Source: Cenococcum geophilum (Eukaryota). Taken from it: DNA of 64,000 nucleotides. A program made the position numbers and the translations under genes. The notes below the pieces were generated by a model. The model had not been told where the DNA came from and did no database searches. It saw only the letters and a program-made list of their open reading frames with translations. Below are positions 22,181-64,000 of this stretch, one piece after another. The DNA is taken from positions 11,222,001 through 11,286,000 of the forward strand of contig CP158635.1 of NCBI GenBank assembly GCA_050273025.1, in the 5' to 3' direction. Each line of letters begins with the position of its first letter. Position 1 is the stretch's first letter.

Positions 22181-23499
22181 CTATTTAAGTTTAGCGGGGC
22201 CCCGACACCCGTTTTCGGGCATCGCTCTCTCGCTTAGCCGACCGCCGCTTTTAACGTCTATAAAATGCTCCATCGCCTTTACTGCCCTCTCTACCAGCTC
22301 TTTCTCCCTTGGATTTCACTTCTGCCCTAGCCTTACCCCTGCTATAAGGCCCCACCCTCATGGCCTGCGCCCGCCCCTTAATACTAAACTTCTAATTATA
22401 ACTAACACCGAGATGCACGCTCTCTCAGCTGACGACTCCTAAATATTTAACTATCGTTTCTACTCTTGCGGCCTATATGCTACCGTTATAATCTTGGTAT
22501 AAACTACCTTAAATAGATACACTAGATTTAGGGAGGCTGATATTACATCCCCTCTTTAAGCCTTATTTTCTCTTTACGCTCCTTCTATTTATTTTCCTCT
22601 CTAGTATTTTTTTTATAGGCTATCTAGGTCTTTGGTTCTAACTTTTACATAGTCCTACTTTATCTATATTTTATTATCTTAGCTCTATTAACTAATAGCC
22701 TGCCCTAGAGTTAAGACGCCTATTTAAACACTTAGACGTTACGCCAGAAATTACTTTAGCGCTAGCACTCTACCACGCCATTACTATAGTTAATTAAAAA
22801 ATATATCTTATCCTTACCGCTTTAATAATATAACTTAGGAGGCTGTAATTAAAATAAGGAGCTGCGGAGCCTAAACCGTAACTAGTTACTAAAATAACTG
22901 CTATAGTAGTAGGAGTGTAAGTAGGGCAGGAGGGCGTAGCAAAAGGACGGCAAGGGGTTTAGATAAAGGGTAAACCTAACTAAAGGACTATTAAATTAAT
23001 CTTCTAACTAATAAAGGAAATGCCTTATTATATAAAGCTATTATAGCGCTAGAATAGGTTAGCAGAACTTTACGGATATTTTGTATAACTGCTTGCCAAT
23101 TACTTTAAACTAGTTAATTCTGTCTCTATTATAGAGTCCCTGTCTTATAAGAAAGAGTAGGTAGTATATTTTAGCGAATAAATAGGATAAATTAAGGCTA
23201 ATAGGCTAGGATCTAGGGTATTCTATTAGCCTTTTATCCCCTAGGCATTAGTTTTGGCCCTCTTTAAAAAAACCTAAAATTAAAATCTATGGAGAATAAC
23301 CGGGAATACACGGTCTGGATTTAACGGCAATACTATAATATACTATTAATCTAGGATAACTATGTTATACTACTATGCTAAGGGCACTTAAAGCATCCAC
23401 TATTGTAACTAGTAAAGGAGGGAAAGGTTATATAGCCGAAAGGGGCGGAATAAGTTAATCCGGTACCGCTAATGGATATTAGTATTACTACTACTTATA

Positions 23500-26160
23500 G
23501 AAGTTGCAGATATAGCACTATTAACGTAAATCCTAGTGCTGTAAGGCGTAAACAGCAATATTTGTTTATATATTTGCTAACTAAAAGAAGTAATACTATG
23601 TAAGAATATTTAAAGGATTTAGTAGGGGAAGTAACGTAAAAGCCTTAGACAACTCCCTAAGTAGCTCTAGCTAGAAGTTAACCTATTAAGCTAATCCTAG
23701 TACCGCAGGCACCACTAATTCCTAGGGGATAGGCGCAATATTTATATACTATAACGCCTTAGCCCAAAGCTATATAAACTAAGCCACCGCCGTTACTATT
23801 AGGTTCGGCGGTAAGTACGGAGAGGATAATAGATTAAACTAGCTAAGGACTAGGCTATGCTAAGAGCATATATATAAGAATACACTTTCTTACTAATTCC
23901 TAGATTATCTTACTCCTTAAAAAGATTTTTTTATTACTTCTATATCTTTCTATCCCAATCCTTAAATTATAATGGACTTTTAATCTTTTTATATACCTAG
24001 AGCACCAACTACCTAGATTTCTAGGCCCAAGCTATACCCCCAATTACCCTATATACAATTACCTCCCATTATAGCTAGTAGATAAGGTAGGCAATTTACT
24101 AAAAGAAATAAGAGTTCTATGTCAATTATTAATCTTATAGCCTTTACTCCGGAAAAAACTGTTATAGAGTGCTAAATAGCTAGAGGTGACCTAACTAGGG
24201 CTTAAGGTAAGTGTATATATAGTTAGATTATAGTAATAGTATCTAATATAATATAGGAAACTCGTCTATCGCCTAAAATAATATTACTAGGAAAACTTCT
24301 AGTGGCCCCCGTAGTAACAATAACGACTACCTTTTAAAAGTAGAAGACCTTATTTCTAAAAAACATTAGAGAAAAGAAATAGGAATTTTTAACCTTAATC
24401 CTTAACATACGACCACTAGGTAGTTATTTAATAATAAAAGTTAGAAAAGTGGCCTTCTTTATAACGGATATAGATCTAGAGCTAGGACTAAAGTATTAGT
24501 TAACAGCAAAGGTAAACATATTACATTTAAGATTTCTTTATAATCGGCTTAAGGAAATTGCTTATACTATACTATAGATAAACTAGCTATACTAAATACT
24601 AAAAAACTATATAGCGGCCTATCCCACTATAACGCCTAAAGCCCTAAGCCTACTACCGTTGGCGATTAAACTAGCTTTACTCCTATTTCTAGTATCCTAA
24701 ATAATATTACGGTTAGTTATCTAGGTGCTAAACCAGGAAGTACTAATAGCATTAATAATAGCTAGAGCCTTAATAACCAAAACTACAATATTAGCGAAAG
24801 TGCCAATAAGGCAGACAAGTAGCTAGAGAAGCCAATTAGAACCATTTTAGTCTTAGAATACCCTCTAACCCCCTCTAAGAATTTTAACTAAGGTAACCCC
24901 TAAAGAACTATAAATAACACAGGCGTCTAGGGTAAGGAGTTGGCCCCTAATCGCTCCAAAATATATAGGAGCGGCTCTGGCTCTAATAGCGCTAGCAACT
25001 ATATAAGTAATTAAAACATTAATACTCTCTAATAGTAAGGAATTGGGCTATAAAATGGACTAGACTATACCTAAATAACTAGGATTAGACATTCTAACTC
25101 CTGTAATAAACTTGCCGAAGAAGAACTACAGGATAAATCTACAGTAGGGGTTAGCGATTTTTGCGCACTAAGTCCGACTAAGGTAGATACTAATAACGTT
25201 TACGGCGAATACCTTTATAGTAAGGGGGTTAACTTTAGATAAGATAGTAACTAGTATTTAGAGCAAACACTTCCCCAAAGCAATTTAGCCATAAAGTATT
25301 ATATTAGTAGTAATCCTACGGAGAATAACATAAGTATAAAAAGAGCGTATTCTTAAAGAGCTTATTAAGGTATGCTTAAGATAATATTAAAAGAACCCCA
25401 GCCCACCTAATGCGTTTTCTTAGAAAATGCCACCTATAAGTATAACCTAGCTAAGAACGTAAGTAGATTAGACCCTATATACTAATTATTACCAAAGTAA
25501 TAAAGTTAATACGCTCCACTTTAAGCTAAGGCTCTACCATCTAGCGTTAATGCTCTACCTCGGAATACTCTTACTTAGAAACGGCCTATCTCACTCATTA
25601 ATTCCTCTATACTCCCTTAAGATGGTTAATCCGCTAAGCGACGTAAACGCTTAAGGGGAAAAACGGGGAAGGCTAGAATGGTGAAGGAAATGCTCCTTTA
25701 CGTATATCCACCTAATAAAAAGAATATGGGTTACACGGTTAAGCGTATTAAAGCTATTCACCTTATAGATAACGGGTTTATACTATCCACTATAAAATAG
25801 ACGTCATTAGAGGTACCAACGGATAGTCTAGTAGGAGAAGAGTATTATAGCCAGTTTAAGGGCTTATTTAAGATAGAGTTTAGAGAAAAGGAGTGGGACC
25901 TATAACGGGAGAAGCGGCTTTAGAAGATGGTAAGATATCTATATCACGGAGAGGATAACGATTACATAGTTAAGTATATTAAGGCTCTTCACATTATAGA
26001 GGATGGATCTATATAATGCACTATTAGATAGGCGTTATTAGTAGTAGCGGAGGATAATCTTAAAGAAGATCTGCTTAAATAGGCTAAGAAACTATTTAAG
26101 GAAAAGTACAGAGAGGAGAAGTAGGAGTAGTAGCTTTAGAAGAAGTAAGAAGCTACTAAC
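23500..26160 (+). pseudogene. RIPed gene ending in two tandem chromo-like domains
   Basis: YTVKRIKAIH..DNG....IK(W) from 25732 and YIVKYIKASH..EDG....IR(W) from 25963, after a long low-complexity linker. 5' boundary uncertain. Confidence 0.5.
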
Positions 26161-26599
26161 TAAAAGCCCTAAAGCAAAGGTTAGAAGATTTAGAGAAGGT
26201 AACAGGATATTTTTACTAGCTATAATAGTTTTAGTATCCCTTAACTGGCATCGGCGTTAAAGAAAAAAAGATATTTTTAGTATTTATTATCTAGCAACCT
26301 AACTAATTGCTTTCGGCTTAGGTGCAAAATATACTTTTAGTAATTAGATAAACTAGCGAGGTAGGTAAGATCTAGTAATTACTTCTACTAAAAAGGGTCT
26401 CCCTTAAGAAGGTAACCCTTTTACTAAAATCACCCCTTACAAACCTACTTTATTAAGCGCTATAAATCTTACTATAAAAAAGCTAAAGCTAGTTCTTTAT
26501 TGTAACCACTTATTATTTAAATATATTTTTATTTTGGGATAACGATATACTTCTTCAGCCTAATATATCTATTAACATTAATAAAGTAAACTGTTTTAT

Positions 26600-27410
26600 T
26601 AATGGCGACCATAATACGCATATTGTGATATATTAGCAATATATAAGCTAGTTAATAAATTCGCATATCTGCTAAGCTTTCCTTGAAGAAATACCATATA
26701 ACGATCGCAAGAAATTATTTAAGAGCATAGACAAACAAGTACTTTTGAGATCACTTCCCTATATAGACTACGACTAAGCTTAGAAGGTCCTTATAGAATA
26801 CCGTAGGGAAATTAACTCTATAATTGAAATTCTTAATCATGTTAATAACCAACAGCGAGCACTATTAATATTCGCGCTTACAAAAACAGCTTATATAAAA
26901 ATATTTTATAATATAGACGAGGAAAGCAAGGACAGAGCTATTCGCAGTCTTAATAGCAAAGCTGTCTATAACGGGAGAAAGCAGATAGGTGCTGTAGCAC
27001 TTAGTAGTTATAGTGCCTATCCGTTAAACTAGATAAAATTCGAAGATTTATATGCTTCTTATAAGAAGAAATATAGCTTTAGAGACAAAATATAGAGAGC
27101 GAATTATTAGGACTATACCTATTATAGAGACTATTTGCTTAATCACTATGGAATAAACTGCATTTAATGCCAAGTTCCACTACATGTTATTCGCCTTTAA
27201 GATCGGCATTACTTATAGGAACTTAGACTAACCAAGATAAAGGTTAACGGACTTATAGTCTACCCACAAGACCAAATTGTATACGCGATAGCAAAATTTA
27301 TAGAAGAAGGAGACCCTTACTAGTACAAAGCGGAAGTCCTTTATAACTATTATGGCGCTGCATACAATATAGCGGTATTTAATTTCCTTAGTATACTAGC
27401 TTTTAGGTAA
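26600..27410 (+). pseudogene. RIPed RING-HC finger protein (putative E3 ligase)
   Basis: At 27051-27170, reverting TAT to TGT/CAT gives CASC-x14-C-x2-H-x2-CRDC-x8-CIQC. The last two Cys survive unmutated as TGC. Confidence 0.65.
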
Positions 27411-28189
27411 AGGCTTTACCCATAAATAAGATATATAGAAGGCGGAGGTAGAGGCAATAATAGTAGGTAGTGCGGTGCTAACTAGTATAGTAGATTTCTG
27501 TTACTTTAAAGAGATATCTATATACTCGCTATAGGTTTGTATAATAGCGCTCAAACAGCTTATTCTGTAAGATTAAATAACGATACTACCGCGTAGAATA
27601 GATTTTAGAAGTTAAAAAGGTCTATAATATACTATTTTAAAATCGCAGTACTTTTTATACAGTTATGATATTAAAATACTATTTTTTGCTAGTAATGTTC
27701 GCTACAGTTATTTCTAAGCAGATTATTAGCTTTAATTATTTCTGGAGACGATTTTAATCCGTTTATAATAATGCAATGCTTTTATACTATACTAAATATA
27801 AATATCTAACTAAAATATATTATATTAGTGCGGAAGAACTAACGCATCGGTCTCTGGCTTTATAAGTAGTACTTAGCTATTATTGCTTATTAAATTATAA
27901 GTGGTCTCTGCCTAAATCTATATAATGTAGGTAAAAGCAATGCCGCTTTCTAAGCGCTATACTACGGTTTCTAAGGCATATAGCGTAAGTAAGGAGTTAG
28001 GAGATAAAGCTACGGCGCATTTAGCCAGCTCTAATATAACTAAAAAGAAGTTTAGAAATACAGTTCTTACTCCATTTAAAACTAAATAAGGGGCTCTATA
28101 TACTAGTGTTTAGGGGTAGCCCTAATAGTTAATTATCGTTTAAAGCTAATAATCTAACTAAGCCAAGCTTTACGCTTAGAATTAAATAG

Positions 28190-29190: not shown

Positions 29191-30069
29191 TATAGCGTGT
29201 GGTAAGCTTAGGCCTAAATAATTTAAAAACAGAACTTTCTCCTATAGTACTTTAAGCTACAAAAACTTTACTTCTAGCAGACTTCGCAATTAGCTTTCCT
29301 CCATAGTGTCGTAATCTTTATTAAATATTATAAGGTTTCCACCCATACAATATTACTAAATTTCGTCAGCAATTGCAGAGACAGCGTTATATTTCTGTTT
29401 TGGCGGCAATAACAGGGGCGTAGTTAAGGGGGAAGCGTACATCTTTAATTTAATTCTCCTAGCTAACCTAGGCGATTCTCCAGGGCAACTATAGCGATTC
29501 TCTAGGGCAACTAAAAAGGCCCTTACGTATAGGCACACGCGTTCGCTATAATAGCTCCAATTTATATAAATAAGGGTTTATTTACACAATTTAAAGTCAA
29601 ATTAGTAGAGGTTGCGGCGTTATAGCAAAATAAAATCAGCTCTACTCGTTATAAAGAAGGCTCGCTTTATAAATCCATATATTCTAACTTTACGCTTTTA
29701 GAATTAATAAGAGATTATTAAGTGTTAGATAGGGCAATCAAGAATAAAAACTCTGTTAATTAAAGCCGGCTTTAGAAGCTATTTATATATATAAGGTTTA
29801 GTCCGCATAAGCCCAATAGGGATCCAAATCAGATATTAAGTAATAAATAATTATATATAAGGTAGGTATAGGCAATAGAAACAGGTAGTGAGATATAATC
29901 AAGGTGGTAAGATATAGGGTAGTAGTGTTAAATTGAGGTTATAGAGCTAAAACTCTATATATTACTTATTTTCTATATAGGTAGTTAAAGAGATTTTAAG
30001 GAACTTCAACCGCCAGTCAAAGTTGTCTAATTAGGTGCTTATGGGGATTTGGCAACTCCTATTCTATAA

Positions 30070-31200
30070 ACTTACAGGTGCCTATTAAGATTTTCCACTT
30101 ATAAAAAGTCTTTAGCGCATTTTAAGCCCTTAAATTTGGAATTTGGCATATCTAGAGGTATTAGAAAAAAAAAGGTCGTAGCATAAAGCCGAACTTACAA
30201 GTCCGTCTATATTAAAGCATATCTTACCTTCTAGCGTAGCTCCTTAAACACATATCACAATTTGCTTATAGGGCTGGTGTAGACAGTTCCAAAGCGGGAG
30301 TACTATTACTATTTATAGGAGAGGTCTTTTTCTGCCATACGGGCAGTGTAAATAGATAACCTCCGTACATTCCTAAAGAACTATTAGAAGTTATTAGGAG
30401 GGTTTATAGTAGTTCTATCTACCCAGTCTTTATACCCAACTAAGTAAGTAAATTATTAAATATTTCTAAGGACGAAGGGCTAGCCACCTAAAGGATCTCA
30501 TTCTAAAGTAGTTAACGCTTCGTTAACTCTAGATGCGCTATATAGCATATCTAAATCTCGCTTCAAATCTCTCCAATATATTATTTATCTTTAGCATTAA
30601 TATTAACAGTTTTACAATAAGCTAGGATATATTCCCACTTTATTTAAGCAGCAATTAAAGTAGTATAAGCTCTGTAGATAAATTATATTAGCATTTAGTA
30701 AAAATAATAGGTGCGGTAATAATAGTAAATTAAATAAGACTAGATATATTTAATAGAGGTAGGCCACGTTAAAGGCATAGGTAGAGCCACCTTTATTTAT
30801 AAGTTTATTTATAAGAACTATATCTACAATATTAATGTCACTTTTAGGGTATATCTATTACGTATTAGGGTTATAAAGATCTATAGTATAGCCAGCGGTT
30901 ATTCTAAAGGCCTAACAGTACTATCTATTACCTAATAGTGCCTAACCTTTAATATATAGGTTATTAGGAGGGGGTATAAAGTACGCGCGTGGATCTAATA
31001 ACTTATATCTTATTAATACCCGCTATATATTACTAAGCTAGGGAGAGTTATAGACATACTAGTAACAATATAATAGGTATTTAAGATATATACGGAAGGC
31101 CACACTAAATTACTCGTCGTTAGCTAAGAATTAGAATCCCAACTTATTAAACTTCGTAGAGGGGAAGGGATAAAGACATTCGATAAGATATTTAGTTATA
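30070..31200 (-). pseudogene. Unknown protein, tandem paralog 1
   Basis: 30100-30610 aligns with 31550-32060, including an intron position; probable frame YWRDLKRDL...LVGYKDWVDRT...SRFGTVY. Confidence 0.6.
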
Positions 31201-31479
31201 AGTTAAGAGATAACTAAGACAAAGTGTACGTAAATACGATCTAGGTCGATAGATAATAGTATAATAGTAGTAAGGGAATCCGATCTAGGTCGACACTCTA
31301 TAGTTAAAATCCTTAACTATTTAGACAACTAACAGCAAACACTACTATTAAATTATCCTCCTAAATGCCGCTATACCACTAAACTATCTCTTTCTTATAT
31401 AACGAGCGTGTCTCCTATTACATTTTACTTTAAAAGCCCGGTAATTAAAATAGGCTCTCCAACTACGTAAGTCTCTATT

Positions 31480-33150
31480 AGGCGCTTCTAGGAATTTAAG
31501 GGCTCTATTTATATAAGTTTGTAGGTACTTAGTAAAAGTGTCCACTCGTAAAAAGTTTTTATTGCATTTTTAGCAGTTATGTTTTAAATTTAATATATCT
31601 AGATATATTAGAAATAAAAAAGAATTATAACATAAAGCCGAACTTATAAGATCGTCTATATCGAAGTATATTTAACCTACTAGTATAGCTCTTATAACAG
31701 ATATCACAATTTATTTATAGAGCTAGCGTAGACAGGTCCGAAGCGGGAGTGTTGTTACTGTCTATAGGAGAGGTCCTTTCCTGCTATATAAGAGGTACAA
31801 ATAGATAGCCTTTATACATTTCTAAAGAACTATTAGGAGTTGCTAGGAGGATTTGCTATAGTTCTATCTACCTAGTTATTATACCCAACTAGGTAAGTAA
31901 ATTGCTAAATATTTCTAAGAATAAAGGGCTAGCTATCTAAAGGGTCTTATTCTAAAGTAGTTAATACTCTACTAACTCTAGATGCGCTATATAGGACTCC
32001 TAAACCTTACTTTAGGTCTCTCTAATATATTTATCATTTATCTTTAGCATTAGTGTTAACAGATAACCTAAATTAAGAGATTATTACAGTGTCTCCTCTA
32101 AATTAGTAAAAGTTCCGTATATTAAAGGCTGCCACGCGCTATCATTATCCATTATCTCTACAAGTGCTGAAGCTAAGAAGTCCTACCCTAAATTTATATT
32201 GTTATTGCCGGAATCTTTAATTAAGTAATCCTTAGGGCTATTATTCACACTTTCTATTCTAGCTAAGTGCATAAAGGTAGATGATTGAGAAAAGGTAGGC
32301 GGTATTAGGGCCATTGGTGCGCGTAGGCAGACCTTAGAATTATTTAGAGTTTAAGACAGATAATTTGCCATCCCATTAATTATTTAGGGAACTCCTATAA
32401 CAGGCCACATATTATAAGTACCTATAATTATATTACCCTATAGGCCGAAGTTCGTACTACTAGGCAGCGCTATTATCTATACGTAGGTATTAGTAGATAG
32501 CACTAGATATACCAGGAAGGGGATAGATATACTAAGCTAGTAACAGTATTAGGAGGTTTAATATATACTTAGTCGCCATTATACTTCTCTCTACATTCTT
32601 ATACATCTTGCTTTTTTATATCTTAATATATAGGTAATTAAAGTAGATAAGCTTAAATGATCTCCAACTATGTGTTTAGATAGCTTAGCATATCTAATAA
32701 TAGAGGGGTAGCTAACTGAAGGACTATATCCTACAATTTTTCAGACTCCTTTAGCTCTAGAATTGACCGCTTAAGGCCCGGAAATATTCCTAGTATACTA
32801 AGGCTGTTAATTATTAATAAAGTCTGCGAATCGCGGCCTAATAGTACTTACTTTTCATTATATAAGGCTTTAGGAGTAGGTAACTATACGGGTTTACTAA
32901 GGGTAGAATAGTTATGCAGATCTACTAACTTATATATTATTAATACTGGCCACCTTAGCAAGCGTATAATAGTTACAGATATACCGGCCACAATGGAATT
33001 ATTACTTAAGGTATATTTATAGGGCCGTACCAAATCATTCGTCGCCAACTAAGAATTAGGATCCCGCCTTATTAGATCCTATAAAGGCGCTATAGGATAA
33101 AACTAGTTTAAATCCTTAAATTTAATTTACTTAGTGTTAAATTCTACCAT
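31480..33150 (-). pseudogene. Unknown protein, tandem paralog 2
   Basis: Shares the C-terminal block with paralog 1 and an N-terminal motif (33031-33090 vs 31110-31165); the middle region differs. Confidence 0.6.
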
Positions 33151-33199: not shown

Positions 33200-35600
33200 G
33201 GTTTATCCTAGAAATAGTTTTGCACAACATAAGTGGCATAGGCTGCCGTATTCCGACACATAACACCAATACGTTTACCTAAAATTTCCATAGCTGCAAG
33301 CCCTTTTACCGGTCGTTTACTAATTAGGGGTGGGTAGAAATCTATATATAGGCCGCTATGCATAGGATGAATTACAATTTCGTATTCTATGCGACTGCTA
33401 GCGCACCCAAATAACTATATACATTTTAGATGCCCGCATTTAAAGGCTCTTATATACCGGTCTATATACTTTCTTAATACTAAATTAGACAAACTACTAA
33501 TAAGGGGTAGCTCTATACTTACTTAAACTTTCTCTTATTCGGAGTGGGTCTATGCTTACATTTAGGCCAATATAGGTAGTGAAAGAGACAGTTTGCTCTA
33601 GGGGGGATCTAATAGTAGCGGTATTAACATCTTAGTAGCCTATTAGCCGGATTTATTTAACTTCTTACCTTAGTCTCAGTTCCTATATTGGCTTATTTAA
33701 ACTAGGGATTTATAAAATATTTGGTAATTATTATAGAGGATTATAAATGCCTTCTAATATATAATTACGCTTAGTTAGTAAAAGAAGGAATACCGGCTAA
33801 AGCTATAAGGGAGGGAGTAGGGGGCGGGGTAAATGGGAAATCGGGCCTATATCCTAAATTACGTATAATTAGAAATTTATATATATTAGCAAACTAAGGA
33901 GGGTTATAGACATACCTATAATAAACCTAGTTAAAAATTAAAACTCGACTCTATTAAATCCAGGTTCGTCTAAAGGGGCGCCGCGATATTATTTAGGGCT
34001 AAATCTAGGTTTTAAGTGTGTCGTCTTATATAGTTTTTTAATTTATACCTCTTAGTAAATCCATTACCTTTTTAGGATTTCTTGCAATTTAAATATAGGC
34101 AAAGGTAAGGGTTGCGGCCGCCGTGCATTCCATAGGCGTTTCTTTTATGGCGATAGAGGTTACTAAAAGTCAACACAGTCTCCTAGTAATCCTTAAATCC
34201 GCATTAAACCCCTAGTATTTGGTTTAGGGTTAAATATGGATTTTAAGAGTGTTTTCTTCTTATATAGTCTCTCAATTTATTTTACTTAGTAAATCCATTA
34301 CCTTTTTAAGATTTCTTACAATATAAATCTAGGCAGAGGTAAGCGTTACGGCCGCCGTGCATTCCGTAGGCGTTTCTTTTATAGCAATAAAGGTTATTAG
34401 AAGTTGACTTAATCGTCTCCTAGCAATCCTTAAATCTACATAGAACTTTCCGCATTAGAATTAGTCCTATAAATAGCTAGCACTAAAGGTATTAACTTAT
34501 CCAGAAATTAAGAGATATAGATAAATAATTTACTATATAATAAGATATGTTTTAATCTAAAGGGGAGTAAAAGTTAAGGTTAACATAAGGAAGAACCCAA
34601 CTAGCTCTCTATAAGGCATTATTAGCGTTAAATAGTTACGCTAAAGGCTTATTAGATATAGGGGGTTATAAAAAAGGCTTACATTATCCATTATTAAGGA
34701 TCTCCTATAGATTTGTTAGATAAGGTCCCAACAAAAAGAGACTAATAGAGGGGGAGGAAATAGGCTTACACCTACCATTTCTTAGGCTATGACCCATAGT
34801 ATTAAATAAGGGGTAGATATAGAAGAAGGAATGTTATATTTAAGTTAGCATTTGTTATCTATATTATAGTTAGCTACCTAATCAAACGTATTCACCTAAA
34901 TTAAAGTAGCTGGCTATAAATATGCACGGTTTACAGCCGCTTATCTCGAAGTCCGTAGTAGGGTAATTCCCATAGGGTATATATTGCATAACGACTACCT
35001 TTAAATTCTCTACTAGATTAATTTTAAGACTACGTAAAGGATTTATATTGCGCTTAGGAACTACATACTTTAAAAATTTGCTTAATCCCTATAAATTCAG
35101 CGCGCTAATAAACTTATATACATAGAACTAAAAAAATTCTACAATAACTATAAAGAAATAGACTTAAGTTTCTAACCTTTAGTTAGGATGTAGATTGTTA
35201 ACCATCTCCTATTATCTACCCGCTAATAAGTTATATACCCATAAGTAATATTATAACTTACCTCTACTTTTAAGTCCTTAGTTTTTCTAACTAGTCCCCC
35301 TAAAGGATATATTCATCTATTTTAACCTTAAGAACATAAAGATAAGATATTAACTTAGTATACACAAATAATAACTAGATAATTAAATACTTACGTAAGC
35401 AATATTGTTAAATACCGTACTAAGATATAGCCTAACTGGACATTATTAAGTAACCTCTATCGCAACGTTATTCGCGAAGTCTCTAAACCACTCCTTATAA
35501 GATTAATAATCTTTATTCTCTTTAGGTTGCCGCTCCGCCCAGTTTACAGCCTTTACTATAAGTATTATAATATATTTAAGATATAGATCTCCATCGGAAC
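33200..35600 (-). pseudogene. RIPed tandem C2H2 zinc-finger transcription factor with an internal 234-bp duplication
   Basis: De-RIPed LFHCPYWPKCKH...KK(H)xDR(H) and FKCGHxKC..LFGCASSRIE(H)EIVIH at about 33370-33590, split by an intron. Upstream extent uncertain. Confidence 0.65.
34051..34440. repeat. Direct repeat with 234-bp period (78 codons)
   Basis: CTTAGTAAATCCATTACCTTTT at 34051 and 34285, with about 155 bp of continued similarity. Confidence 0.85.
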
Positions 35601-36569
35601 CCTCTTATAGTGGTTAGTATTAAAATATTCTTTAGGGAGTATAAGAATAAGGAGGGAGGTATTACAGATTTTGTTCTTTAGGAGAGTTAATAACAATTGC
35701 ATGCGGAAATCTAATCTACTAGTAGGGTATACGAATTATACTCGAAATTTCTATTAATACCGCGCCGGTAATACTGCGATCTATTAATAATATAAAGACA
35801 AAATCCACTCTTACTATCCCCGGTTATATAGTAACGCCCTAAATACGACTAGTTATAATTTTCCTTTATTAGGTTTATAGGTTAGGAGTATATAATGGGG
35901 CTATAGAGTGGCTTATATCCTCTAAGTTCCTAAGAGGCAATAAGGGAGATTTATATACTCTTTCTAAGCCAAGATTTTATTCTAGTATTTTAGTAATAAT
36001 GGATAAGGAGATGTTTATAGGCTATAAGATATAAAGTCATTAGCGTAAAACCTTATCCGTTTATCTCTATTTCCGTTAATATATCTATATACCTAAATAG
36101 TAGATTATTTATAAGTCGTTTCTAGGCTTAGATTGCTAGCTAGTTAGCCTAGCCTAAAATAGGATAAAATATATCTAGCTTATACTATAAAAGGTAAGAA
36201 GCGAAGGTCAAAGACAGACACGAAGCAAAAATTGCCCTATAACTGTTAGTGATTTAAATAAAAGTAGCTAGAAAAAAAGTACTTAGTATATAGCCAAGCT
36301 ATCCTTTAGAAGTTTTAGTAGAAGGATTAAGGATATAATAATTATAACACTTATAAGAAATAGTAAGATAACTTATATCTAGCCCCAGATTCTAGTACCT
36401 CTACTTATTAAGCAAAGTAAATACTTCTAGCATTCCCAGGTTAGGAAGTAGATTAGGTAAATTTACTTTATAATAAGAATGCTATATATTAAGCAGCGTA
36501 CTCCAGCTTTTATCCTAAGAGTTTCACTTTAATAAATTTAGCATTTAGAGTCTAAAGTTAAAACCTTTT

Positions 36570-37070
36570 ACTTATACAAATGCCGAAAATAATGTTAAAG
36601 CTACCTCTACTATAGTAAGAAACAACCATCCGGCTAGAACCCTATAAGAGATAGCTTAGCCAGATATTTCTGCTACACTAGTATTAAGTAATGTAGTAGT
36701 TTTTAGGATCTATAAACGATATTAGCTATAGAGAAGGAGGTTAGGCACCGCACTTATAGATAAAAATATTACCATTTCTAGCGCGCAATCTATTACTGCT
36801 AGGGAAACATTTTCGAACTTCTATCTAGTCCCGTGCTACTTTTAGGCGATTTCTAAAAATGCAAATGCCAAAACTGTAAAAGTAATGTGTGCCCCATAAG
36901 CAATAACTATAAAAACCTTAGTGGAGCTATAGAAGGGTGTATATTTCCAAAAAAGGATATAAATACTAATACCTATTGCAAGCACGTAAGCCACAGTAGC
37001 AGTAATAGCGAAGGAAAGTATGATTACAGTAGTATTAAAGGAATAGGTAGAGTCTATCTTAATAAATAAG
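36570..37070 (-). pseudogene. Possible small integral membrane protein, RIPed
   Basis: Several hydrophobic segments (VIILSFAITATVAYVLAIGISIYILF; VLAGWLFLTIVEVALTLFSAF). RIP itself inflates hydrophobic codons. Confidence 0.3.
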
Positions 37071-47637: not shown

Positions 47638-49259
47638 AACTATTATCCCCCTAACCAGCAAATAAAGGATAAGAGGTAAGTAAGAAAAGTAAGGGAAATA
47701 TAATAGAAGTACTTAATAAGAAGGCAAGTAGAGAAACTAGTAGGTAGTATAGTCGTCATAAATTAATTTAATAAAAATTTTCTTTATTTTTATTAGGTGC
47801 TAGTACAGTATATAGCTACAAGGCGCATGTTATTTGTATATAAGCTATATACTGCGCATATAACCTAAAAGACCTCTTCTATACCCTTACACTGAGACGC
47901 CCCCTTTCCTTAAGGATTTGTCTCTTAGTTTCTTACAACCTACTAATATATCCTATTATTCTATCAATTAGACTCCCTATCTACCTCGTGCCTTATATTA
48001 ATAAATATTATACTATATACTATATATTAACTAGACAATTTAGAATAAGAGCTCTATCTTTTAAAATAAGACTTTAGAGCCTCTAATAGAACCCTAAAAC
48101 ACGTTGCCCTTCTATATACGCCTACCACTATCTAATATCGGCTCGCTAAATCTAAATAGACGGAGTTTTAACTCTAATAAATACAGTAGGGATAAATACA
48201 GACGCAAGACGTAGCGGTTAAATTAAGATATAGAGGAAGGAAGCGGTAAACAGGTACGGTATAGAGTGAAACAGGGCGAATACTTATAGCAACCTAGTAG
48301 TCTATAGGCGATATACCATTCTAAAATCTCACTAGGCACTTTAACGCCACCTATGACCTATCGTCTATCCCTTCCCCTTTAGAACTAGCATTGCTAAATC
48401 TATTAAATAGACCGTAAATATTATATTCGTTTCCTTAACTAAATTCTTTTAGGTGCCTTATAATGGATAAAGCCCTATCTTTATAACTAGGTCACGCGGT
48501 TAACTCCGCTTAATATTAAGGGATTAGCTAAGACGTTGCCTAAATACCCTCTTACATTAAGGCGCTATATTTTAATTTATGCTTACTAAGCTATAAGCTA
48601 AGCCTCGCTTTAGGTATTATTAGTAAACGTCTCTATTGGCAACGTAATGCCTATTAACTAGCTTTAGTAAAAGAGTATATAAGACCCCCTTATACAATTA
48701 CAGCGCGTTAGTAGACTTAATCTAAATAAAGAGTAAATTGGGTGGCGATGCAGGACTATATTAACTATATTAGTGGGGCATAGCACGCGGGCTATAATAG
48801 AGAAGTGAGGATTAGATAGCTTAGCACCAAACTTATAGAACGAAAGGGCTGCTATAGATAGGTGCGTTATTAGTAAGGGAATTTCTAGTTAACCCGCTTA
48901 GTTAACTAATTTGCTAAAGCTAAAAGCGTATATATTGTATAGCTAGACACTAAATAGGACGTGCTAATGCTTTGGCATTGCATACGCCTAAAAACCCATA
49001 GCTATATAATTAATACGCGCGTTTAATAACAAGGCCTAATTAATCATTTTCGGAGCCCTTTAAAATCCCTAATTTTGCGTCGCGACTATTTTATATACGG
49101 CCACTACCGGTGTATAGAATTTGTTAATAAAGGCCCTTAGTTACTATTAGGGCTATATATATATATTATATACTTCTCTATTAACTAATTACTTAAAGTA
49201 ATTTAAAGATTATAAATATTAAGACAATATTTATTAAATTTAACGACACTATTCTAATT

Positions 49260-50350
49260 ATAAATATTAACCCTAAACCTAGGCCATTACTTCTTAAACG
49301 CATTCTCTCTTATCTACTCTCTTATCTACACAATAACGGGAATAGCCGCTATTAAAAGATGCGGTTTAATAGAAGTGGGTAGTTTTAGGCTAAGCTATCT
49401 ATACCTACTACTAATTAACGTTTAGTTAATAACTACGTTAATGGCATTCCGAAGGCAGCAGCAACTATATCTTTAGAGCCGCAATTTATAATCTTTTAGC
49501 GGTTCGCACTAGAATTAATATAAGTCCTTTTATATTACTAGTATAAGGTTAGTAAGGCGAAAAAAGCACTAAATAATTATAATAGGGAGCGTATAGGCGA
49601 TATTATATCCTTTTATAACAAGGAACGAAATAAACTCTTAACTGCCTTAGATAGTGCGCTTTAGGACTATAATAAATTAACCTAAATACAAACTTATGGC
49701 TGTAAACGGTAGCTAATATATCTAGGTATAAGGGTGGCTCTTACCTAATAAATACTTAGCATCCCTAAGCCTAATAGTCGAGATATACACAGCTTTTTTA
49801 ATCTCTTTTATAACGACAAAGAGGTCACAGAAGCGTTTTTTTAAATATTACACAGCTCCTATGTCTGACCTGTTTATACTCAGTACTCGGCGGGATTCAT
49901 AGCTTTATACGCTATTAGGTCATTCAGCCTGCCGATCTCTATTTCTAAAGGTATTCTCACCGCATCCTTAAGCCTAAATATACTAATTAAAGTAGCGTAT
50001 CTTGTTAACGGCGGAACAGATAGCAAGGTTTAATAATATAATTATTAATCTAATAGACAATACTAGGATTGTTTATTTAATCCAAATTATATACTATCTA
50101 TTCTTAGTTATCTTTCTATAGTCACTATATTTTACTATACTTTCTAGTACCATTATTCCTTTTGCCACTATATTACTCATTATTAAAGATATATCATTCC
50201 ACTAAGCATTTGTTCCTATTGCAGCGTATATCTTAAGCCCTGTTTTTCTCCTTTATAAACACTAAGGTAGCATACTAACCGGAAATCTTATATAGGTTTT
50301 GCATCATATATAAGGTTATAGCTAAAAGCGGCGGTAGCCTAGTTATAACA
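49260..50350 (+). pseudogene. DUF6594-like membrane protein, RIPed
   Basis: YVNGIPKAAATISLEPQFIIF.RFALEL..VLLYY(Q)...LL..LDSAL(Q)DYNKL...PNSRD, matching the recalled GYPxxAxxxxxxPxxxIFRRF pattern. Hydrophobic 3' part. Confidence 0.55.
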
Positions 50351-52549
50351 GTTTAGACCTACCCCTATAACTAGAGCAACAAAGTACTATTAGAATAGAT
50401 AAAAACAGTAACCAGGGAAAGTTTTCTACAAGGGCCTTAGAGCCTAAATCTAATTTAAATTCGTTATTCTTAATTTAATACAGTCCCTTTATTTTTTTCT
50501 TTATAGAAAAGGAATATACTACTATTTATTTCGCTATAAGCTGCCCTTAGGCTATTCGCATCTTTCTTATAAAAATTTTATCCTATTAAAAATAAATAAA
50601 TTGGGTTGAAAACTTTCCTGCTAAAATTACATCTATTTAACCCTAAAAACCCTTATCGCCTTATTTATAGTAGGCTTTAAAGCTTAGCCAGTTAGGCCAC
50701 AATAAAGGCATACGCCCGTTAATCCAGTGGCGGGCCTTATAGTTATTGTAGAGGATATTCGTCGCTCTAAAGCCAAGGGGCTTTACAGTATAAGATATAG
50801 CAAGGCATTTGGCGAAGCCCTATAGCGTTAGCGTTGGGTTTATAGCGTCCGCAATAGGCCGTAAGGACTAGCCGGTAGCTGCAGGTTAGCTGTTACCAAC
50901 TATAGTATTAGCGGGCATAGGACGGTAGCGGGCGAGGCGTAAGGGCTAGGTAGGTAGTAGGGGTAGTAGTAGGACGTTGTCTTTCCCTCCCTTTACAGAT
51001 AAGAGCTAAGGGGATATTAGGAAGCAAGAAATAGTTACGTTAATAAATTACTTATTTAACGTCCACTCGCTAAAGTAAATTAAAGCCTAAGTTTTATAAT
51101 TCTATAAGATAATAGCTGCTTTAATTGCTACTGTTTACTAGGGTTTACTATTTCTCTACCTAGCAACCTCTAATAATGTCCAGCGAGACTTATAGCAACC
51201 TATTATTTTATATTAGGCTATTTATATCGCTAAAGGAATATTTTATACCTAATCCTCTCTAATATATTTCTTAAATACTAACTTAATTACATTTTTAAAG
51301 ACAGACTCTATTATATTAACTCTTAGCCATAAAACTCCATTCCATTTCTACGGGTATACTTTATTAGCTAAATTTAAAATAGCCTATAGGGATATACGTA
51401 CTTCTAATTCTATAAGCTTCTCCTACTTACCCTTTAGTACCTTTACCCTTTGCTTTAAGGCTACCCTTTCCTCCTATAGTTACCATTCTATTAGATAAGT
51501 AAAATACTTCTAAGAGGCATATATACCTTTTTAAGCGCTAACGCATCCTCTAGGCCCTTTATAAATAGAGTGGAGGTATATAAATCTAGATATTAAGTAT
51601 TAGAGGTTTAGCTAGATGCTATACCATTTTCACTAACAAAGTAGTATAAGAAGCTATATATATTAACTTCTCTAGCATTAGCGGTATGCGTAGGCACATT
51701 ACCCTCTATAGGCGATTTTTGGAAAGCCATTCCGTAAATTAAAATATTAGTAGAACTAACAATAGCTAGTTAAGTATAGAGCGTGCCTTATATATTCGGT
51801 AGCTACTCCTTAAGTAATTAACAGTTTAATAAGAGCTTAGGAATAGATTACCAGAGGACAGCGGTTTAGAGTTTTTAGCGTATTTAATAGAGATTTTTTT
51901 TTTTAAAGAATAAACGTCATTTAATAGAGAATTTATATAGCTTACCCGCAAAAATCATAAAAGTAGTCTAGAAATTTTAAGAGAAAAGTTAAGTTCCTAG
52001 GCCCCCTACTCCACAAAGCTATACCATAGTTAACACTCGCGCTCGGTTACGGGTTAGTAGAGGTAAGATTATACTTTAAATTTCTTATTATTATAGGCTC
52101 TCCGGCTTTCTGCTCTATAAAAGCTATACTATAATATATACGTTGCATTTATTACGCGCTAGGCCTCCTACTAAATAAGTCATAAATAAGGGATTAGTAG
52201 GGATAAAGCAGGGGACGTATATTCTATCTATGCTTACTCGCATAAAAGTAGGGTCATATAATAGTTATAATCTATATAGGTAATAGTTTATATAAGTTAA
52301 TGCGATTATTACTCTCGTTCCCCTTAGCAAACTAGATAAATAAAGAAATTAAATACGCTTCGTTTATTTAATTTCCTTAGGAAATTTAATAAGAAGCAAG
52401 ACGCGGCGAAAACAGGACTAGGTAATAGTGGTGCTATCCTATACACTATTAAGAAAGGCATACACACAAGCGAATTAACTAGAGTCACTAAATTAAATTA
52501 AGTCTTGGCGAAATAAAGTTATAAATTTAATTAGCGAATTAAGGCTCTA

Positions 52550-53060
52550 AATCGTTATAATAAAGCTTAAAATTTATATATAATTGATTCTATTATATAC
52601 TAATTAGGCTAGTAAGGTCCTTCTTTATAAAGGGGTATATTGTATAAAGCACAGCCAAATTAAGTCCTCGGAGGAGCGTATTAATGTTTTAGTATTCGCG
52701 CACGGGCCTCTTTTGGCGTACGCCTTAACGGCGTATAGAATACTCTTTAAAGAGTTTACCCGAAGATAGTTTAATACTACTTTATAATACTTGGATGGCT
52801 TTACTAGCCTATCTATAACAGGTTATCACCTTATTCCTTAACTATGCCACAGTATTAATCTACGTCCGTCTAAGCTTTAAAGCCATATTTCTAGGTTGTC
52901 CTCTTCCTACTATATATTCGTAATATATATAGGTAAATCGGCATATAGCCTTAGTTTAGCATCTTACATTATTTTAGTTTTTAGGATCTCCTAAATATAT
53001 ATAACACCTATAACTAACGTCTTTCTTAATTCACCATATATGTAATTTCCTCCATCCTAA
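52550..53060 (-). pseudogene. Unknown protein, shares a motif with the gene at 61.2 kb
   Basis: DLPIYITNI(Q)(W)EEDNLEIWL at about 52880-52940. Confidence 0.45.
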
Positions 53061-53880
53061 ATAAAAATATATTACCCCCTATAAGTAGAATACTAAATAA
53101 AAATACTAGGCAGATAGACGTGCTAGATAAATAAAGGCTTATAGGTAGATTAGGTATATAATAGATAGATTAGGTACGTAATAGGCGGATAAAGCTATAT
53201 AGTAGATAGATAAAGGTTTATAATGGTAGCAAGTGACGTAATTAGATAATTATAGCTTTTTACCTTTTTTTGTATTATTTACTCCTCTAGTAAACTAAGT
53301 AAGTCGGTCGTCGCTAGCTTTAGCGGAGACGATTAAACTAGCTAATATGTCTTTTAACAGTATTCTTATCACTGCTTCCCTTATAGCACTTTATTTTATC
53401 CTTTACCTCCTTAACTAGTTTATCTAACATCTCTACTAGCTTTCCGCTATATTTACCGCATATAACCTACACATTACCTCTTCTATAAAAACTATCTGGG
53501 CAGTAAATTACTATTTTCCTGGTTTTTATAAACAATCCTAGCTCTATTAAACTTATTAAGGAATTGGTTTTTAGATAAAGATATATAGCGATCACTATGG
53601 CCTTCTCCTAGCATCTAAGCCCTTATTAAACTTGCCTATAGAATTCCGGGTTACTAATATCTTACTTAAGATTGGCATTGTAGTAATCCTGGCGCGGATT
53701 TAGAACCGTAATTAGGAGTAAGCTAAGGCGCTTCATTATATCATTTTGCTATTTAGGCGCTTTCCCTATTTCTATACTACTAGTAAGAAAGACAGATCCG
53801 CCAGTAAGAGGAGCTATATTTAATAGTTAGTAGATAGAAAAGCCTAGGTATATATCCTGCGTAATAGGCTCTATAGTAAT

Positions 53881-54170
53881 TAGGGTTATAGCCGAAGACT
53901 TAATAGTAATCTTAGTAGGACTTATAATGGTTAGGATAATAGGTATAGAGTTAGCAAAAAGTTTAGCAGGAGTTAAAACAACTAAAGCTATAGCTATAGA
54001 TTTAGCTAAGATATTAGTTAGGGTTATAGCTAGAGACTTAGTAATAATCCTAGTAGGACTTATAATAGTTAGGATAGTAGGTATATAGTTAACGAAAAGT
54101 TTGGCAGAAGTTAAGACAACTAGGGCTATAGCTATAGATTTAGCCGAGATGTTAATTAGATTTATAGCGA
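53881..54170 (-). repeat. 138-bp direct repeat, 2 copies, in a probable Pro/Gln-rich coding region
   Basis: TAGGGTTATAGC at 53881 and 54019; a minus frame de-RIPs to Gln/Pro-rich sequence. Confidence 0.8.
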
Positions 54171-57144
54171 TAAACTAAAAACGTAGGAATAGATTGACTT
54201 AAATACGGAATAAAAGCCTTACCTATTAGTCCTATATAAAGAAGATAGTAGGTAATTTTATATTTTCTAGGTAGGTACTATTATTGTTTTATAGTCTTCT
54301 CCTTTATAAAAACATATACTCCTACCTTGTAATAGAGGGCTTAGAGTCCTAAATCTGCCTTAAAAGAGTAAGCCTTAAAACAAAGGGCCTATAAGCCCTA
54401 TAGATCTCTTTTATATATTTAAAAAAGCTATACAGATCTAAATACTACTATAGCCCTATATGCGTGGACCTAGTATTGACCTATTTAATCCATTATCTAT
54501 CTAATCCACCTAATCCACCTAACCTACCCGATTTACGTTAACTGCCTTATCCGTATTATTCCTATATACCTACTAATGTCTCCCTATACCCCGTTTTGGC
54601 CTATATTAAAAGTTCTTATAATCTAAACGTATTTCCCTGCGTAATAGTTAGTCCGTACGGTAAAGGCTTTAAGTTAATAAGCTAGGGAAAATGTAAGTAA
54701 TAGCGTATATCCTCAGCCCCTTTAGGCGTAGCCAGCCTCGCCCTATATAATAGCTGCCTTTCTATATATCACTAGCGAACCTCCTTATAATTAATATAGT
54801 TATTATCGTTTCTTAGATTAGTCTCTTTAATACTAACATCCTATTATAATATAAATTCCTATATTATTCTAGTGGAGTAATTAATTACTTAGTAACAAAG
54901 GTGTTAATTTAAACTTGTATAGTAAGCCACTATAAATTTATCGCAGTTCTTAGGAGTGCTAAAATAGGCAAGAACGAGACGGCCGTGGAACTTACGCGGG
55001 AGGGTTAGGAGACAAAGAGGTGTGGTAACTAAGCAAGGCATAAAAGGGGGTCTGTTTGGTCTTTACTTAGCAGGCTAAGGCTAAATTAGGCAGGCTAGAT
55101 AGAGGCCCACTTTAATCAGTTACTAGTAGAGTTTCTAAAAGAGCGGGAAAGCTTAAGCCTTCTTAGCACCTAGATAGAGGTTATAAGTATAAACAAATAC
55201 CAGCTTTTCCTAAGACATACTAAGAAGAATAAATTTTCTAAATTTACCAATTAGTATATATGTTCTCATCGCTAATCAGCTAGATACTCTTAATATATTT
55301 ATTATAACAAGGACTTATTTATTTTATCGACATCTATTTTAAAAAGATATCGATTTATAGAATATTAACGCTTCTTATATTTGTTAACATATACGCCTTA
55401 CTATACTAGCCCGTTTAGTTAAGCCTAAAAGGGCAAGCGTAAGTGCCGCCGCTACTACGGGACGTTATCTTATAGGGAAAGAGGTCCGTCCCTACTTACT
55501 AATTATAAGCTTTTATAGGAAGCTCTCTAATGCTTATATAGAAAGTAGATAGTTTTTATATAAATTGCTACCTTAACAAAGGTGAAAAATAGCGGGACTG
55601 GTTTAGGTGTGGGACTCCGACCTACGGTTTTAAAGTTTTTAGATATTATACTTGTCTATTATTATATAAGCGCGATATCTACGGCAAGTATAGTAGCAAG
55701 AGGAACGATAGGCTCTGCGCCTATAATACCCTTTATAAGTTATATTTAAGAGAACCTTAGGAATTTTTAGGATGGGTTAAGGACAGTAGATATTAGAATT
55801 AAGCGAGAGATACTAACTAAGCTCTAGACATATTGCGAGGACGAAGTCCGTATATAATCTATATAGACATCAACCGCATCTACTACATCACAAATCAATT
55901 AATATTCATCGTCTGCGTCATCTCTATTATCAATTAAATCCTTAAAATAGCTCCGCTATAACCTTATAACCTTGTAATTCTAATAATAGAGGAAGTCTTT
56001 AATTAATTAAGCTTACTAACAAGCTTATAGCCTACTGTAATTTATTATCTTTTAATGTTGTTATTATAAGAGCAACCGCGTTAGGTAAAATAAAAACTAT
56101 ATAAAGAGTATTTTCCTTTTCTTAAAGTAGTAGACTAAAGTAACTAGTGAAATTATTTTGCGCGATAGTAGTATTTTACTACACTACGGGAGTATTGCCA
56201 CCATTAGTGGACTATAGTCATCCCCTAGCTAATAATTCTTAGTTAGCAATCAATTATTAAGTATATATAATGGGTAAGATATAAGTTGCTGCTGCCCTAA
56301 CTTCCTTAATTTAAAGTTCTAATTGCCTTAATAAGATAGCCAGATAAGAAACAGCATAATATAAAAATATCTACTATCTAAATATCTAGATCTACTAAAT
56401 GCCACCTATTATACTCTATACTATCACAATCAGCTATTATAATCTGCTCCGATTTTAGGTGGGCCAAAAAACTCCAACTAAGATTTCTTAGCTTTGCGTT
56501 AGTTATCTATATAACGCTCTATTATATAGCGAAGATTAATACAAAGCTTATTATAGTACTTAAGAGAATCTCCGGTTTATAAAGCATCTTAATAGTAAGC
56601 AACTTATAACTATTAACAAATGTTACCAACTTTAAGGTGGAATTGTTAAGCGTACTTAAAGCAATCCCAATAGAACTAAATTTCCACCTATAAATAGCCG
56701 TTGTCTCTTATAAGTCGGACTCTATCATCTAGCGGAGAGCTACTTTTGCCCGTTTATAGGCGTTAAATAGTAGCTTCAAGCGCTATAGAGGTCCCTTTGC
56801 GAAGCCTAATCTTATAATCTAAAAGGGTAACCTCCAGAGGCTTATTAGCACGCTATTTCACCTATAAAGCCTATTTATCCCTTCTCCCAAATCTATTAGG
56901 AGCAGATATAATTTACGATTTTAAAAAGATTTAGGCCGCTACTAAACTTTTTAAACGGGTCCTAGCTAATATACTAGTAATTAAAACAACCTCAAATATT
57001 AGTAGTGAGGCTATAACCTAATAGCCTACGTAAATAGTATGGTTAAGGAGACTTTAATATTCTATAAGCCTGGTACTGCAATATATATATATATAGGATA
57101 AGTATTAGTAAATATATCGAGTATTAATACGTTTTCGCACCTTA

Positions 57145-62320: not shown

Positions 62321-64000
62321 AGCCCCGACGTTTTCCAACTCTATTTTTACCTATACCTCTATATTTTCTACTTATCCTAAATATACAACTAAGGAGAAAT
62401 TACATACATAGGGGCGCCTCTAATTTCCTATCTAAAGGGAAGTAGCGGAGATAATAATAATGACTTAAAGAAGCGAATAAGTGTATAGATCGTAACGCTA
62501 CAAATATTAGGTGACCTTTTTTTCATATATATAATTAGGTAGGGAATATACACCCCTACCTAATTTATTATTTTAATTTCTTATCTATGACTTATTTAGT
62601 ATAGGATTTTTATATAGCCTATCGTTTCCACGCGCATTTAGCGCAGGGTATTTCGTAGAGCAAAAGGCGTAATGAGAAAGGCGTGGTATAACCACAATTT
62701 TTACTAATTCTGTTAATCTTACCAAATTCTTAACTTTATTCCCAGATTCCCTAGACCACGTTTATAGGTTTTCCTACTTAGTAATATAAATACTCTATAC
62801 CCGTTAATATTTATTTTTAATAAAATGATAGAAATCTAATAAGTATAATAAAATCGCAAAACTAACGTCTTTAGGTTATTAATACTTCCGTCGCTTAAAT
62901 ATTTATTATACTAATAATATAAAAAGAACCCAGGAGATCTTTATATCCGCACTATACTTAAAGAATAAAAGACTATATTCGAACCCTTTTATTCCGTAAA
63001 GGTTTAACAAAAGATATTAAGCTATCTTCCTCTTAGTAGACATAAATTCTTAAGAGTAGGCTATAAAACGATTATAATAGACCTAGAAACATTATAGAAG
63101 ACGCTAAATAGAAACGCCACCTTAAATAACTAAAAGTGGCAATACGCAATTTAAGAAAAACTAAGGATTGAAGAGACAATAACTATAGAGATATACTAGG
63201 CAAAGTCCTAGCCTAGTTATAAGGGTCTTGTCAGAGAGTAATAGGAGTTAAAGGAGTTAGGGAAGATAATAGTTAACAACTATAGCCTACTAAAAGAAAG
63301 AAATTACATAAAGATATTAAAAGGGTTCTTTTATATAAGCTTATATAATACTAGTACAGATATTAAGTTGGTAAGAGCAGACTTATTTAAGTAGTATTAG
63401 TATAAAGGATTAAATAATACAGTTAACTGCTTCCTAACGGGAAATTGTATAAATAATAAATAAAATCTTATATTATACAGCCTTTAGATTAATATAAATT
63501 AATCCCAGGTTATACTTTAAAGATAATCCTACTTTATTCCCCTGGGAAAACTAAACAAAATTAAAGAAGATTTAATTGGCAGAGATTTATATTTCTAGTA
63601 GGTATCTTTCTTAAAACTAAAGCAAAGCGTAAGTTAGCTATACTAGAGGCTATATTCTTTCTTAGTAACTATTAACTTACTAATTTAATGGCTACCTAGG
63701 TCCCTTAGCTGTGGCTTAGAGTACTTATTTTTACTAAACATTATTATTAATAGCGAAATCCCTTATTCTATTATTGATTTTATACTTCCGAATTCTCCAT
63801 AGCCAATACGCCATCGGAGTTTACCCGACCAACCCTTAAATTTATTCCTTCCACCTCTTTTATACAGGTACTCTCTTTTAAGAGCTATATATATTAGTTT
63901 AGTTATAGATAACCATTATAATTAATCCCTTAAAATAAAGACCATTATTTACTTTTTACTCTACAATATTATATAAGTTTATAGCTCTTCGTCAGTAAAG

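Follow-up and report, generated by a model that had tools for sequence, protein, structure and literature searches.

The question raised by this locus is how a long block of DNA that holds recognizable relics of host genes, all of them dead, came to reside in the genome of Cenococcum geophilum. The window analysed here is the whole stretch of 64,000 nucleotides (64 kb) at positions 11,222,001 to 11,286,000 of contig CP158635.1 (assembly GCA_050273025.1), numbered from its first letter, and the block in question extends from 22.5 kb to the right end of the window. A preliminary description, made from the letters alone, suggested a giant mobile element, possibly a Starship, with cargo genes that may act together in chromatin-targeted protein turnover. 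The results presented here lead us to conclude that the block probably belongs to a family of large, gene-bearing duplications present in multiple copies, was inactivated by repeat-induced point mutation (RIP) and is located in a transposon-rich AT isochore of a large, Pezizomycotina-type genome.

The first line of evidence comes from nucleotide composition. The GC content and two dinucleotide indices, TpA/ApT and (CpA+TpG)/(ApC+GpT), were computed in two-kb windows across the 64-kb stretch, and RIP-type values (TpA/ApT of at least 1.44 and (CpA+TpG)/(ApC+GpT) of at most 0.65) were obtained for 30 of the 32 windows, which span 1-16 kb and 20-64 kb. All 21 windows in 22001-64000 are RIP-like, with GC content of 0.30-0.38, TpA/ApT of 1.44-1.86 and (CpA+TpG)/(ApC+GpT) of 0.44-0.65; the composition is unchanged at 22.5 kb, so the left edge of the block is arbitrary. 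The two exceptions make up an island at 16001-20000 that serves as an internal control (GC 0.44-0.46, TpA/ApT 0.82-0.93 and (CpA+TpG)/(ApC+GpT) 1.11-1.21). The entire window contains no open reading frame of at least 150 amino acids (aa), and the 26 stop-to-stop frames of at least 80 aa include 7 inside the block, the longest with 115 aa, and 10 in the island. Besides the dinucleotide indices, the copies of this DNA described below differ from each other almost only by transitions, and the transitions between the paired long terminal repeats of two nearby Gypsy elements show a preference for CpA. The RIP of the block, which the preliminary description had proposed, is real.

The second line of evidence is the copy number. 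Contigs from three isolate runs (X1, X5 and X6) were placed on positions 36001-56000 at an identity of at least 85%, and all 30 bins of this interval were covered in each run. For X1, 2214 contigs were placed, 552 of these at least 99% alike and 1662 at 85-99%; the corresponding numbers are 1579 contigs for X5 (384 at least 99% alike) and 2400 for X6 (189 at least 99% alike). In the first 29 of the 30 bins, the summed depth was 598-1802 in X1, 21-78 in X5 and 18-156 in X6, with single contigs at 105-134, 4.8-7.6 and 5.7-9.2, respectively; the last bin (55344-56000) is considered apart. The summed depth exceeds that of single contigs by a factor of about 5-15, which we read as roughly 5-15 copies per genome, diverged by RIP, of the 36-56 kb stretch, Blm10 gene included. 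At position 43189, inside this gene, an alternative base is present in 5 contigs of X1, 9 of X5 and 14 of X6, and the X1 contig records 5 and 6, equal in depth, cover one 420-base stretch, with no differences in one record and 54 in the other. Transitions account for 95-97% of the difference places between the copies, in both directions (3524 of 3641 in X1, 3353 of 3543 in X5 and 3719 of 3927 in X6). The multi-copy state, which the preliminary description had only deduced, is thus borne out for 36-56 kb in three isolate runs.

The third line of evidence is the identity of the genes. The block contains a full-length, intronless pseudogene of Blm10/PA200 (proteasome activator subunit 4; Table 1), already recognized in the preliminary description. 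With five relatives as queries, tblastn gives one colinear, single-frame match (41975-47584), which aligns with aa 49-1946 of the 1974-aa protein P0004 and with aa 1-1665 of P0002; the family members compared range from 1755 to 1974 aa. Both the middle HEAT domain and the C-terminal domain of PA200 are recovered in a frame of 1870 codons that is interrupted by 95 stops (43 TAA, 52 TAG and no TGA). The closest intact relative, P0002, is a 1671-aa protein with Blm10 domains that is identical to the relic at 1055 of the 1642 aligned residues. Changing T to C or A to G within the relic codon undoes 75% (441 of 587) of the mismatches, compared to 15% (standard deviation 1.3%) in the shuffled null, whereby 77 of the 84 aligned stops revert to the residue of the partner and the identity increases to 91%. 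For the more distant P0003-P0005, just 32-35% of the mismatches are RIP-reversible. Judging by these alignments, the relic is evidently a RIP-killed copy of a gene very similar to that encoding P0002. Given that the P0002 match is colinear, unbroken and ungapped, the intact gene would itself be intronless over this range, and hence, the lack of introns in the relic is no sign of retrocopying. A search of metagenome contigs with P0002 produced 46 pattern matches, none of which was confirmed.

Upstream of Blm10, the block encodes the relic of an orphan repeat protein. A HMMER search with the plus-strand frame of 38395-40860 identified 8 relatives, among which P0008, P0010 and P0012 look intact and contain repeats of 23 residues, and P0009 and P0013 are short fragments of RIP-like appearance, with a high content of F, I, L, N, K, Y and M. 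In the relic, these repeats are encoded by a 69-bp tandem array (39615-39959), and 58 of the 128 mismatches to P0008 are RIP-reversible (14 in the null). Neither the orphan nor its relatives belong to any Pfam family, and an Atlas search with the intact P0008 returned no usable look-alike, the model being poor (pLDDT 0.45). On the opposite side of Blm10, a nucleoside 2-deoxyribosyltransferase-like domain was detected, with a single relative, P0016, a protein of 287 aa that contains PF15891 alone and is not an NLR.

RNA data link these relics to living genes. From an RNA run under the same species label, 6859 reads were placed on 36-56 kb, with only 1 at least 99% alike and 5602 less than 90% alike, and 1201 of the 1404 difference places are A>G or T>C; this divergence, together with the bias, implies that the reads come from un-RIPed homologues rather than from the locus itself. 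The reads cover 36.0-37.3 kb (minus-strand RNA), 38-47.3 kb (in the Blm10 orientation), 49.3-50.7, 51.3-52.0 and 55.3-56 kb, and include four intron-like joints that skip 47, 52, 78 and 70 nt, of which the 70-nt one is canonical GT..AG. In the minus-strand relic, one intron has AT..AG in place of the expected GT..AG. Intact relatives, P0002 and P0008, also exist as proteins. The relics thus go back to genuine spliced genes, whose intact homologues continue to be expressed. The view of the block as a series of spliced genes holds to the extent that there are several gene relics, RNA of spliced homologues and an orphan with relatives.

Table 1. Features of the window (coordinates in nucleotides from its first letter)
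Feature	Position	Strand	Details
RIPed Ty3/Gypsy retrotransposon	283-6628	-	Long terminal repeats (LTRs) 283-476/6435-6628, 94% alike
RIPed Ty3/Gypsy retrotransposon	6634-12549	+	LTRs 6634-7006/12177-12549, 89% alike
piggyBac-type transposase relic	21358-21669	-	DDE_Tnp_1_7, E 1.5e-9, first 95 of 349 profile positions; just left of block start
RIP-type AT-rich block	22501-64000		21/21 windows RIP-like; right edge runs off the window
Old local duplication	30030-32062	+	30030-30609 vs 31477-32062, 77% alike; 99 transitions and 28 transversions
Tandem array	33992-34436		Unit of ~231 bp
Multi-copy stretch	36001-56000		Read as ~5-15 diverged copies per genome (runs X1, X5 and X6)
Spliced-gene relic	36237-36762	-	Homologue RNA skips 36237-36285 (635 reads) and 36709-36762 (66 reads); depth 57-186 over 36001-37334
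Segment absent from one or more other copies	38162-41445		Joint 38162>41445 skips 3282 nt; one contig each in X1 and X6
Tandem array	38173-38479		Unit of 81 bp
Orphan repeat-protein relic	39028-40188	+	8 relatives, best P0008, E 1e-52; 23-residue repeats
Blm10/PA200 pseudogene, full-length, intronless	41975-47584	+	Single frame, 95 in-frame stops
HEAT_PSME4_mid domain of Blm10 relic	43025-44641	+	PF16507, E 1.1e-104, profile 1-524 of 524
PSME4_C domain of Blm10 relic	47321-47521	+	PF11919, same frame, E 3.9e-8, 33.5 bits (cut-off 22.5)
Spliced-gene relic	49994-50403	+	Homologue RNA skips 50225-50296, GT..AG, 943 reads; depth 340 in 50008-50674
Nucleoside 2-deoxyribosyltransferase-like domain relic	53488-53796	-	Nuc_deoxyri_tr2, PF15891, E 5.5e-16, profile 3-105 of 105
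Tandem array	53873-54176		Unit of 138 bp; directly upstream of the deoxyribosyltransferase-like relic on the minus strand
Far higher-copy short repeat	55344-56000		~50 contig-equivalents; summed depth 6086 (X1), 203 (X5), 550 (X6)

The protein content of the block was assessed by scanning six-frame translations, with stops replaced by X and in pieces of at most 6.9 kb, against Pfam at E ≤ 0.01; the coverage of 22501-64000 was complete save for the plus-strand frames of 42601-43000, inside Blm10. The credible matches are three: HEAT_PSME4_mid, PSME4_C and Nuc_deoxyri_tr2. The same scan recovered the domains of the two RIPed Gypsy elements and the piggyBac relic nearby, and thus can see RIPed domains at this level of decay, older or short domains being those that could escape detection. 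In the block, no match was obtained to transposase, reverse transcriptase, integrase or DUF3435 families, in agreement with the preliminary description as far as transposases are concerned, and none to RING, chromo, C2H2, Myb/SANT or kinase families. The RING finger, the three chromo-like domains, the C2H2 and Myb/SANT-like factors and the pseudokinase that had been proposed are accordingly not borne out, and a permissive scan (E ≤ 10) of the four patches that we judged most likely to correspond to the proposed chromo-, kinase- and RING-like candidates also gave no Chromo, Pkinase or zinc-finger family. Of the putative module consisting of a chromatin reader, an E3 ligase and a proteasome activator, only the activator is verified, as a dead duplicate, and therefore, the functional theme should not be carried forward.

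A likelihood scan for codon usage, with Blm10 and the two pol relics as the training set, ranked the true frame first in cross-validation, albeit weakly, and delineated about 30 coding-like patches of 450-1200 bp in 20-64 kb; these were used for choosing queries and not as gene evidence. For the top patch (26253-27452, plus strand), no relative was found among database proteins of 220-700 aa, and its match to MgtE_N (23.7 bits, with a cut-off of 25.9, or 29.5 bits when scanned alone) was rejected as a chance helical match. TGA is nearly gone from the RIPed DNA of the window, and a Markov null gives TGA-free runs of more than 1400 codons. Because of this depletion, tests for frames open except for TAA and TAG are meaningless, and the long frames with TGA as the sole stop were discarded as uninformative.

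Under the scenario that we favor, the duplicated DNA would have carried copies of host genes, namely, the intronless Blm10/PA200, the orphan repeat protein, the deoxyribosyltransferase-like protein and two or more spliced genes. After this DNA had become duplicated, RIP would have operated in sexual cycles, converting C to T in both strands of each copy, predominantly at CpA, lowering the GC content to about 0.33 and filling every frame with TAA and TAG stops, while the intact, GC-normal versions of the same genes would persist elsewhere and be transcribed. What has been observed is the signature of RIP, the presence of multiple copies, the relics of genes and the existence of intact, expressed homologues; from these, we infer that duplication preceded RIP and that the intact homologues were the donors. 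The copies themselves could have been made by a giant transposon, by segmental duplication or by nested smaller repeats.

Several points weigh against this scenario. The 146 mismatches (of 587) between the Blm10 relic and P0002 that are not of the RIP type suggest that P0002 may come from a related species and not be the donor, and a different strain may have been the source of the RNA run. The summed contig depth, from which the estimate of 5-15 copies is drawn, is not a true copy number, and the multi-copy evidence is confined to 36-56 kb of the block. The contigs, at 350-870 nt, are too short to reveal long-range colinearity or segment order. Finally, the part of the block at 22.5-39 kb (about 20 kb by our account) lacks any homologue or domain, and a large part of the block may have been non-genic from the start.

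The architecture of the copies bears on how they arose, and its two aspects point in different directions. In X1, the summed depth is 850-1450 in most bins across 40.7-55.3 kb, with outliers of 1689 and 1802, and is lower (598-727) over 38.7-40.7 kb. Break points of the copies recur every 3-6 kb: at 37842/37897 (5 contigs in X1, and 4 and 5 in X5), at 41274-41400 (X6), at 47983 (X5), at 52608/52733 (2 and 7 contigs in X1 and 6 in X6, together with a skip 52435>52740) and at 55793-55985. The even depth favors one large unit and the break points favor a mosaic, and a single giant unit is unproven.

A bolder version of the large-unit interpretation is that 36-56 kb, and perhaps the whole block, represents a fossil family of giant cargo elements, Starship-like with a captain that was lost or lies outside the window, or of an undescribed kind, that picked up complete host genes including Blm10, multiplied to some ten copies in the large genome of a root-associated ascomycete and was silenced by RIP copy by copy. 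We hold this to be unlikely.

The form of this idea closest to the preliminary description, a degenerate Starship or another giant cargo transposon, RIPed in some ten copies, with the captain and ends located outside the window or decayed, also appears rather unlikely. It accounts well for the multi-copy state over at least 19 kb at a fairly even depth, which fits one large unit better than unrelated repeats, and for the carriage of non-transposon genes. Variation between strains is compatible with it as well: the share of exact words of 40001-50000 is 0.76-0.79 in four runs of one sample and 0.64 in a second sample, compared to no more than 0.07-0.13 in two root metagenomes and eight further isolate samples, so that isolates under one species label split into two groups and the copy may vary between strains. 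The low-share isolate X6 still yields 2400 related contigs, 189 of them at least 99% alike, absence of this copy and strain divergence being indistinguishable in this case. No RNA run is among the data sets listed as sharing exact words with 40001-50000. Furthermore, multi-copy Starships hit by RIP (Urquhart et al. 2023, PMC10104507) and degraded Starships without a captain (Gluck-Thaler et al. 2022, PMC9156397) have been described.

Nevertheless, the specific hallmarks were not found in the window. According to PMC9156397, a Starship is defined by a DUF3435 captain and target-site duplications, a Starship-like region by a captain with DUF3723, ferric reductase (FRE), patatin-like (PLP) or NLR genes, and a degraded Starship by at least three matches to such genes without a captain; the window falls under none of these three definitions. 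DUF3435 (PF11917) was not detected in the six frames of 12.3-64 kb (save for the plus-strand frames of 42601-43000) or in the coding strands of 1-12600, in scans that did find RIPed reverse transcriptase, integrase and piggyBac domains, and there were no matches to DUF3723, ferric reductase, patatin or NACHT/HET families in the Pfam scans of the window, that is, no conserved accessory family. Self-comparison of the window showed no long terminal repeats for the block, and no target-site duplication or other defined end was found in the window, beyond which the right end of the block extends. The copies break or skip at 37.85-37.9, 41.3-41.45, 52.6-52.73 and 55.8-56.0 kb, and the cargo consists not of accessory genes but of copies of expressed host genes. 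The assignment to Starships is not upheld, and no observation made here calls for it.

The break points would be explained more naturally if the block were a patchwork of separate, neighboring 3-7 kb repeats, one of these being a Blm10 repeat at about 41.4-48.0 kb that was amplified after having originated through local duplication, retrocopying or the capture of a gene. This interpretation, which we likewise consider rather unlikely, is in line with the sharing of the break points listed above, the skip of 3282 nt, the bin with about 50-fold depth, the intronless and complete state of the Blm10 relic and the transposon-full surroundings. The high-copy bin, in particular, contains a short repeat with loose ends at 55793, 55856 and 55985 and unlike continuations on both sides; neither of the two Gypsy LTRs resembles this repeat. 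However, the depth is similar over all units except for the last bin, which is unexpected for independent families, and the unbroken match to P0002 deprives the intronless state of any bearing on retrocopying. At 41400 and 47983, the loose ends are a mere 9-13 letters in length and may be small indels, and no convincing terminal repeats, including inverted ones, were detected at 38162 and 41445. Finally, a single-copy core region RIPed by leakage from neighboring repeats, such as the Gypsy and piggyBac relics within 1-22 kb of the block, or a genome that is AT-rich throughout, is highly improbable, being contradicted by the many diverged copies over the whole of 36-56 kb in the contigs of three isolate runs and by the 16-20 kb island with normal indices, respectively.

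The surroundings of the block, to the left, include transposon relics. The two Gypsy elements abut head to head, with 5 bp between them, and the mismatches within their LTR pairs are all transitions (11 of 11 and 40 of 40), located at CpA in 8 of 11 and 25 of 40 cases; of the 51 pooled, 33 are at CpA and 16 at CpG. The domains recovered from these elements are RVT_1, RT_RNaseH, RT_RNaseH_2, Integrase_H2C2 and SH3_Tf2-1 (E 1e-10 to 1e-19). By eye, both pol proteins end in chromodomain-like motifs at their C-termini, which raises the possibility that chromo-like motifs at other sites are remnants of Gypsy elements. A comparison of the Gypsy LTRs and the 55.8-56.0 kb piece with the window revealed no solo LTRs in the block. 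Apart from the piggyBac relic, there was no further Pfam match in 12301-16200 or the remainder of 15901-22800. In the minus-strand frames of the 16-20 kb island, motifs resembling the Hsp70/actin-like ATPases can be discerned by eye at 18601-18470, 18366-18340 and 17736-17710; these are split over two frames, with stops, and the search with this frame gave nothing in Pfam and 0 hits in a PDB sequence search, so the frames could belong to a spliced gene or a pseudogene. With contigs that add up to 124-232 million letters in each isolate run, the genome appears to be very large and rich in repeats.

In the fungi that possess it, RIP is generally regarded as a barrier to gene duplication. A complete housekeeping-type gene, Blm10, together with several neighbors copied about ten times, with the extra copies killed and an intact, expressed version kept, would be a clear natural record of this effect. 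Should the copies be colinear over tens of kb with common ends, they would constitute an unusually high-copy, gene-carrying giant element; should they not be, the locus would represent ordinary content of a repeat island.

Compared to known systems, the proteasome activators of the Blm10/PA200/PSME4 family share with the relic the full middle HEAT domain, the C-terminal domain and colinearity with the members of 1755-1974 aa, but the relic, with its in-frame stops, cannot encode a protein and is one among several dead copies. The apparent number of about 5-15 copies exceeds the 0-5 copies per genome given for two Starships in PMC9156397. With degraded ('Derelict'-type) or RIP-mutated Starships, the block has in common the large size, the multi-copy state, the carriage of genes, the Pezizomycotina-type genome, RIP as the consequence of duplication, the lack of a functional captain and, perhaps, variation of the copy between strains; in contrast to these elements, no DUF3435, DUF3723, ferric reductase, patatin-like or NLR genes and no ends or target site were found here, and its genes are dead duplicates of expressed host genes.

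In repeat-rich ascomycetes, AT-rich isochores consist of tens of kb of RIP-degraded repeats with nested relics of LTR and DNA transposons and rare GC-normal islands. The region of the block resembles such isochores in its GC content of about 0.33, RIP indices, transposon relics and GC-normal island. What sets the block apart is that it mostly is not recognizable transposon sequence and that it includes a complete, 5.6-kb Blm10 relic along with relics of other host genes, in multiple copies.

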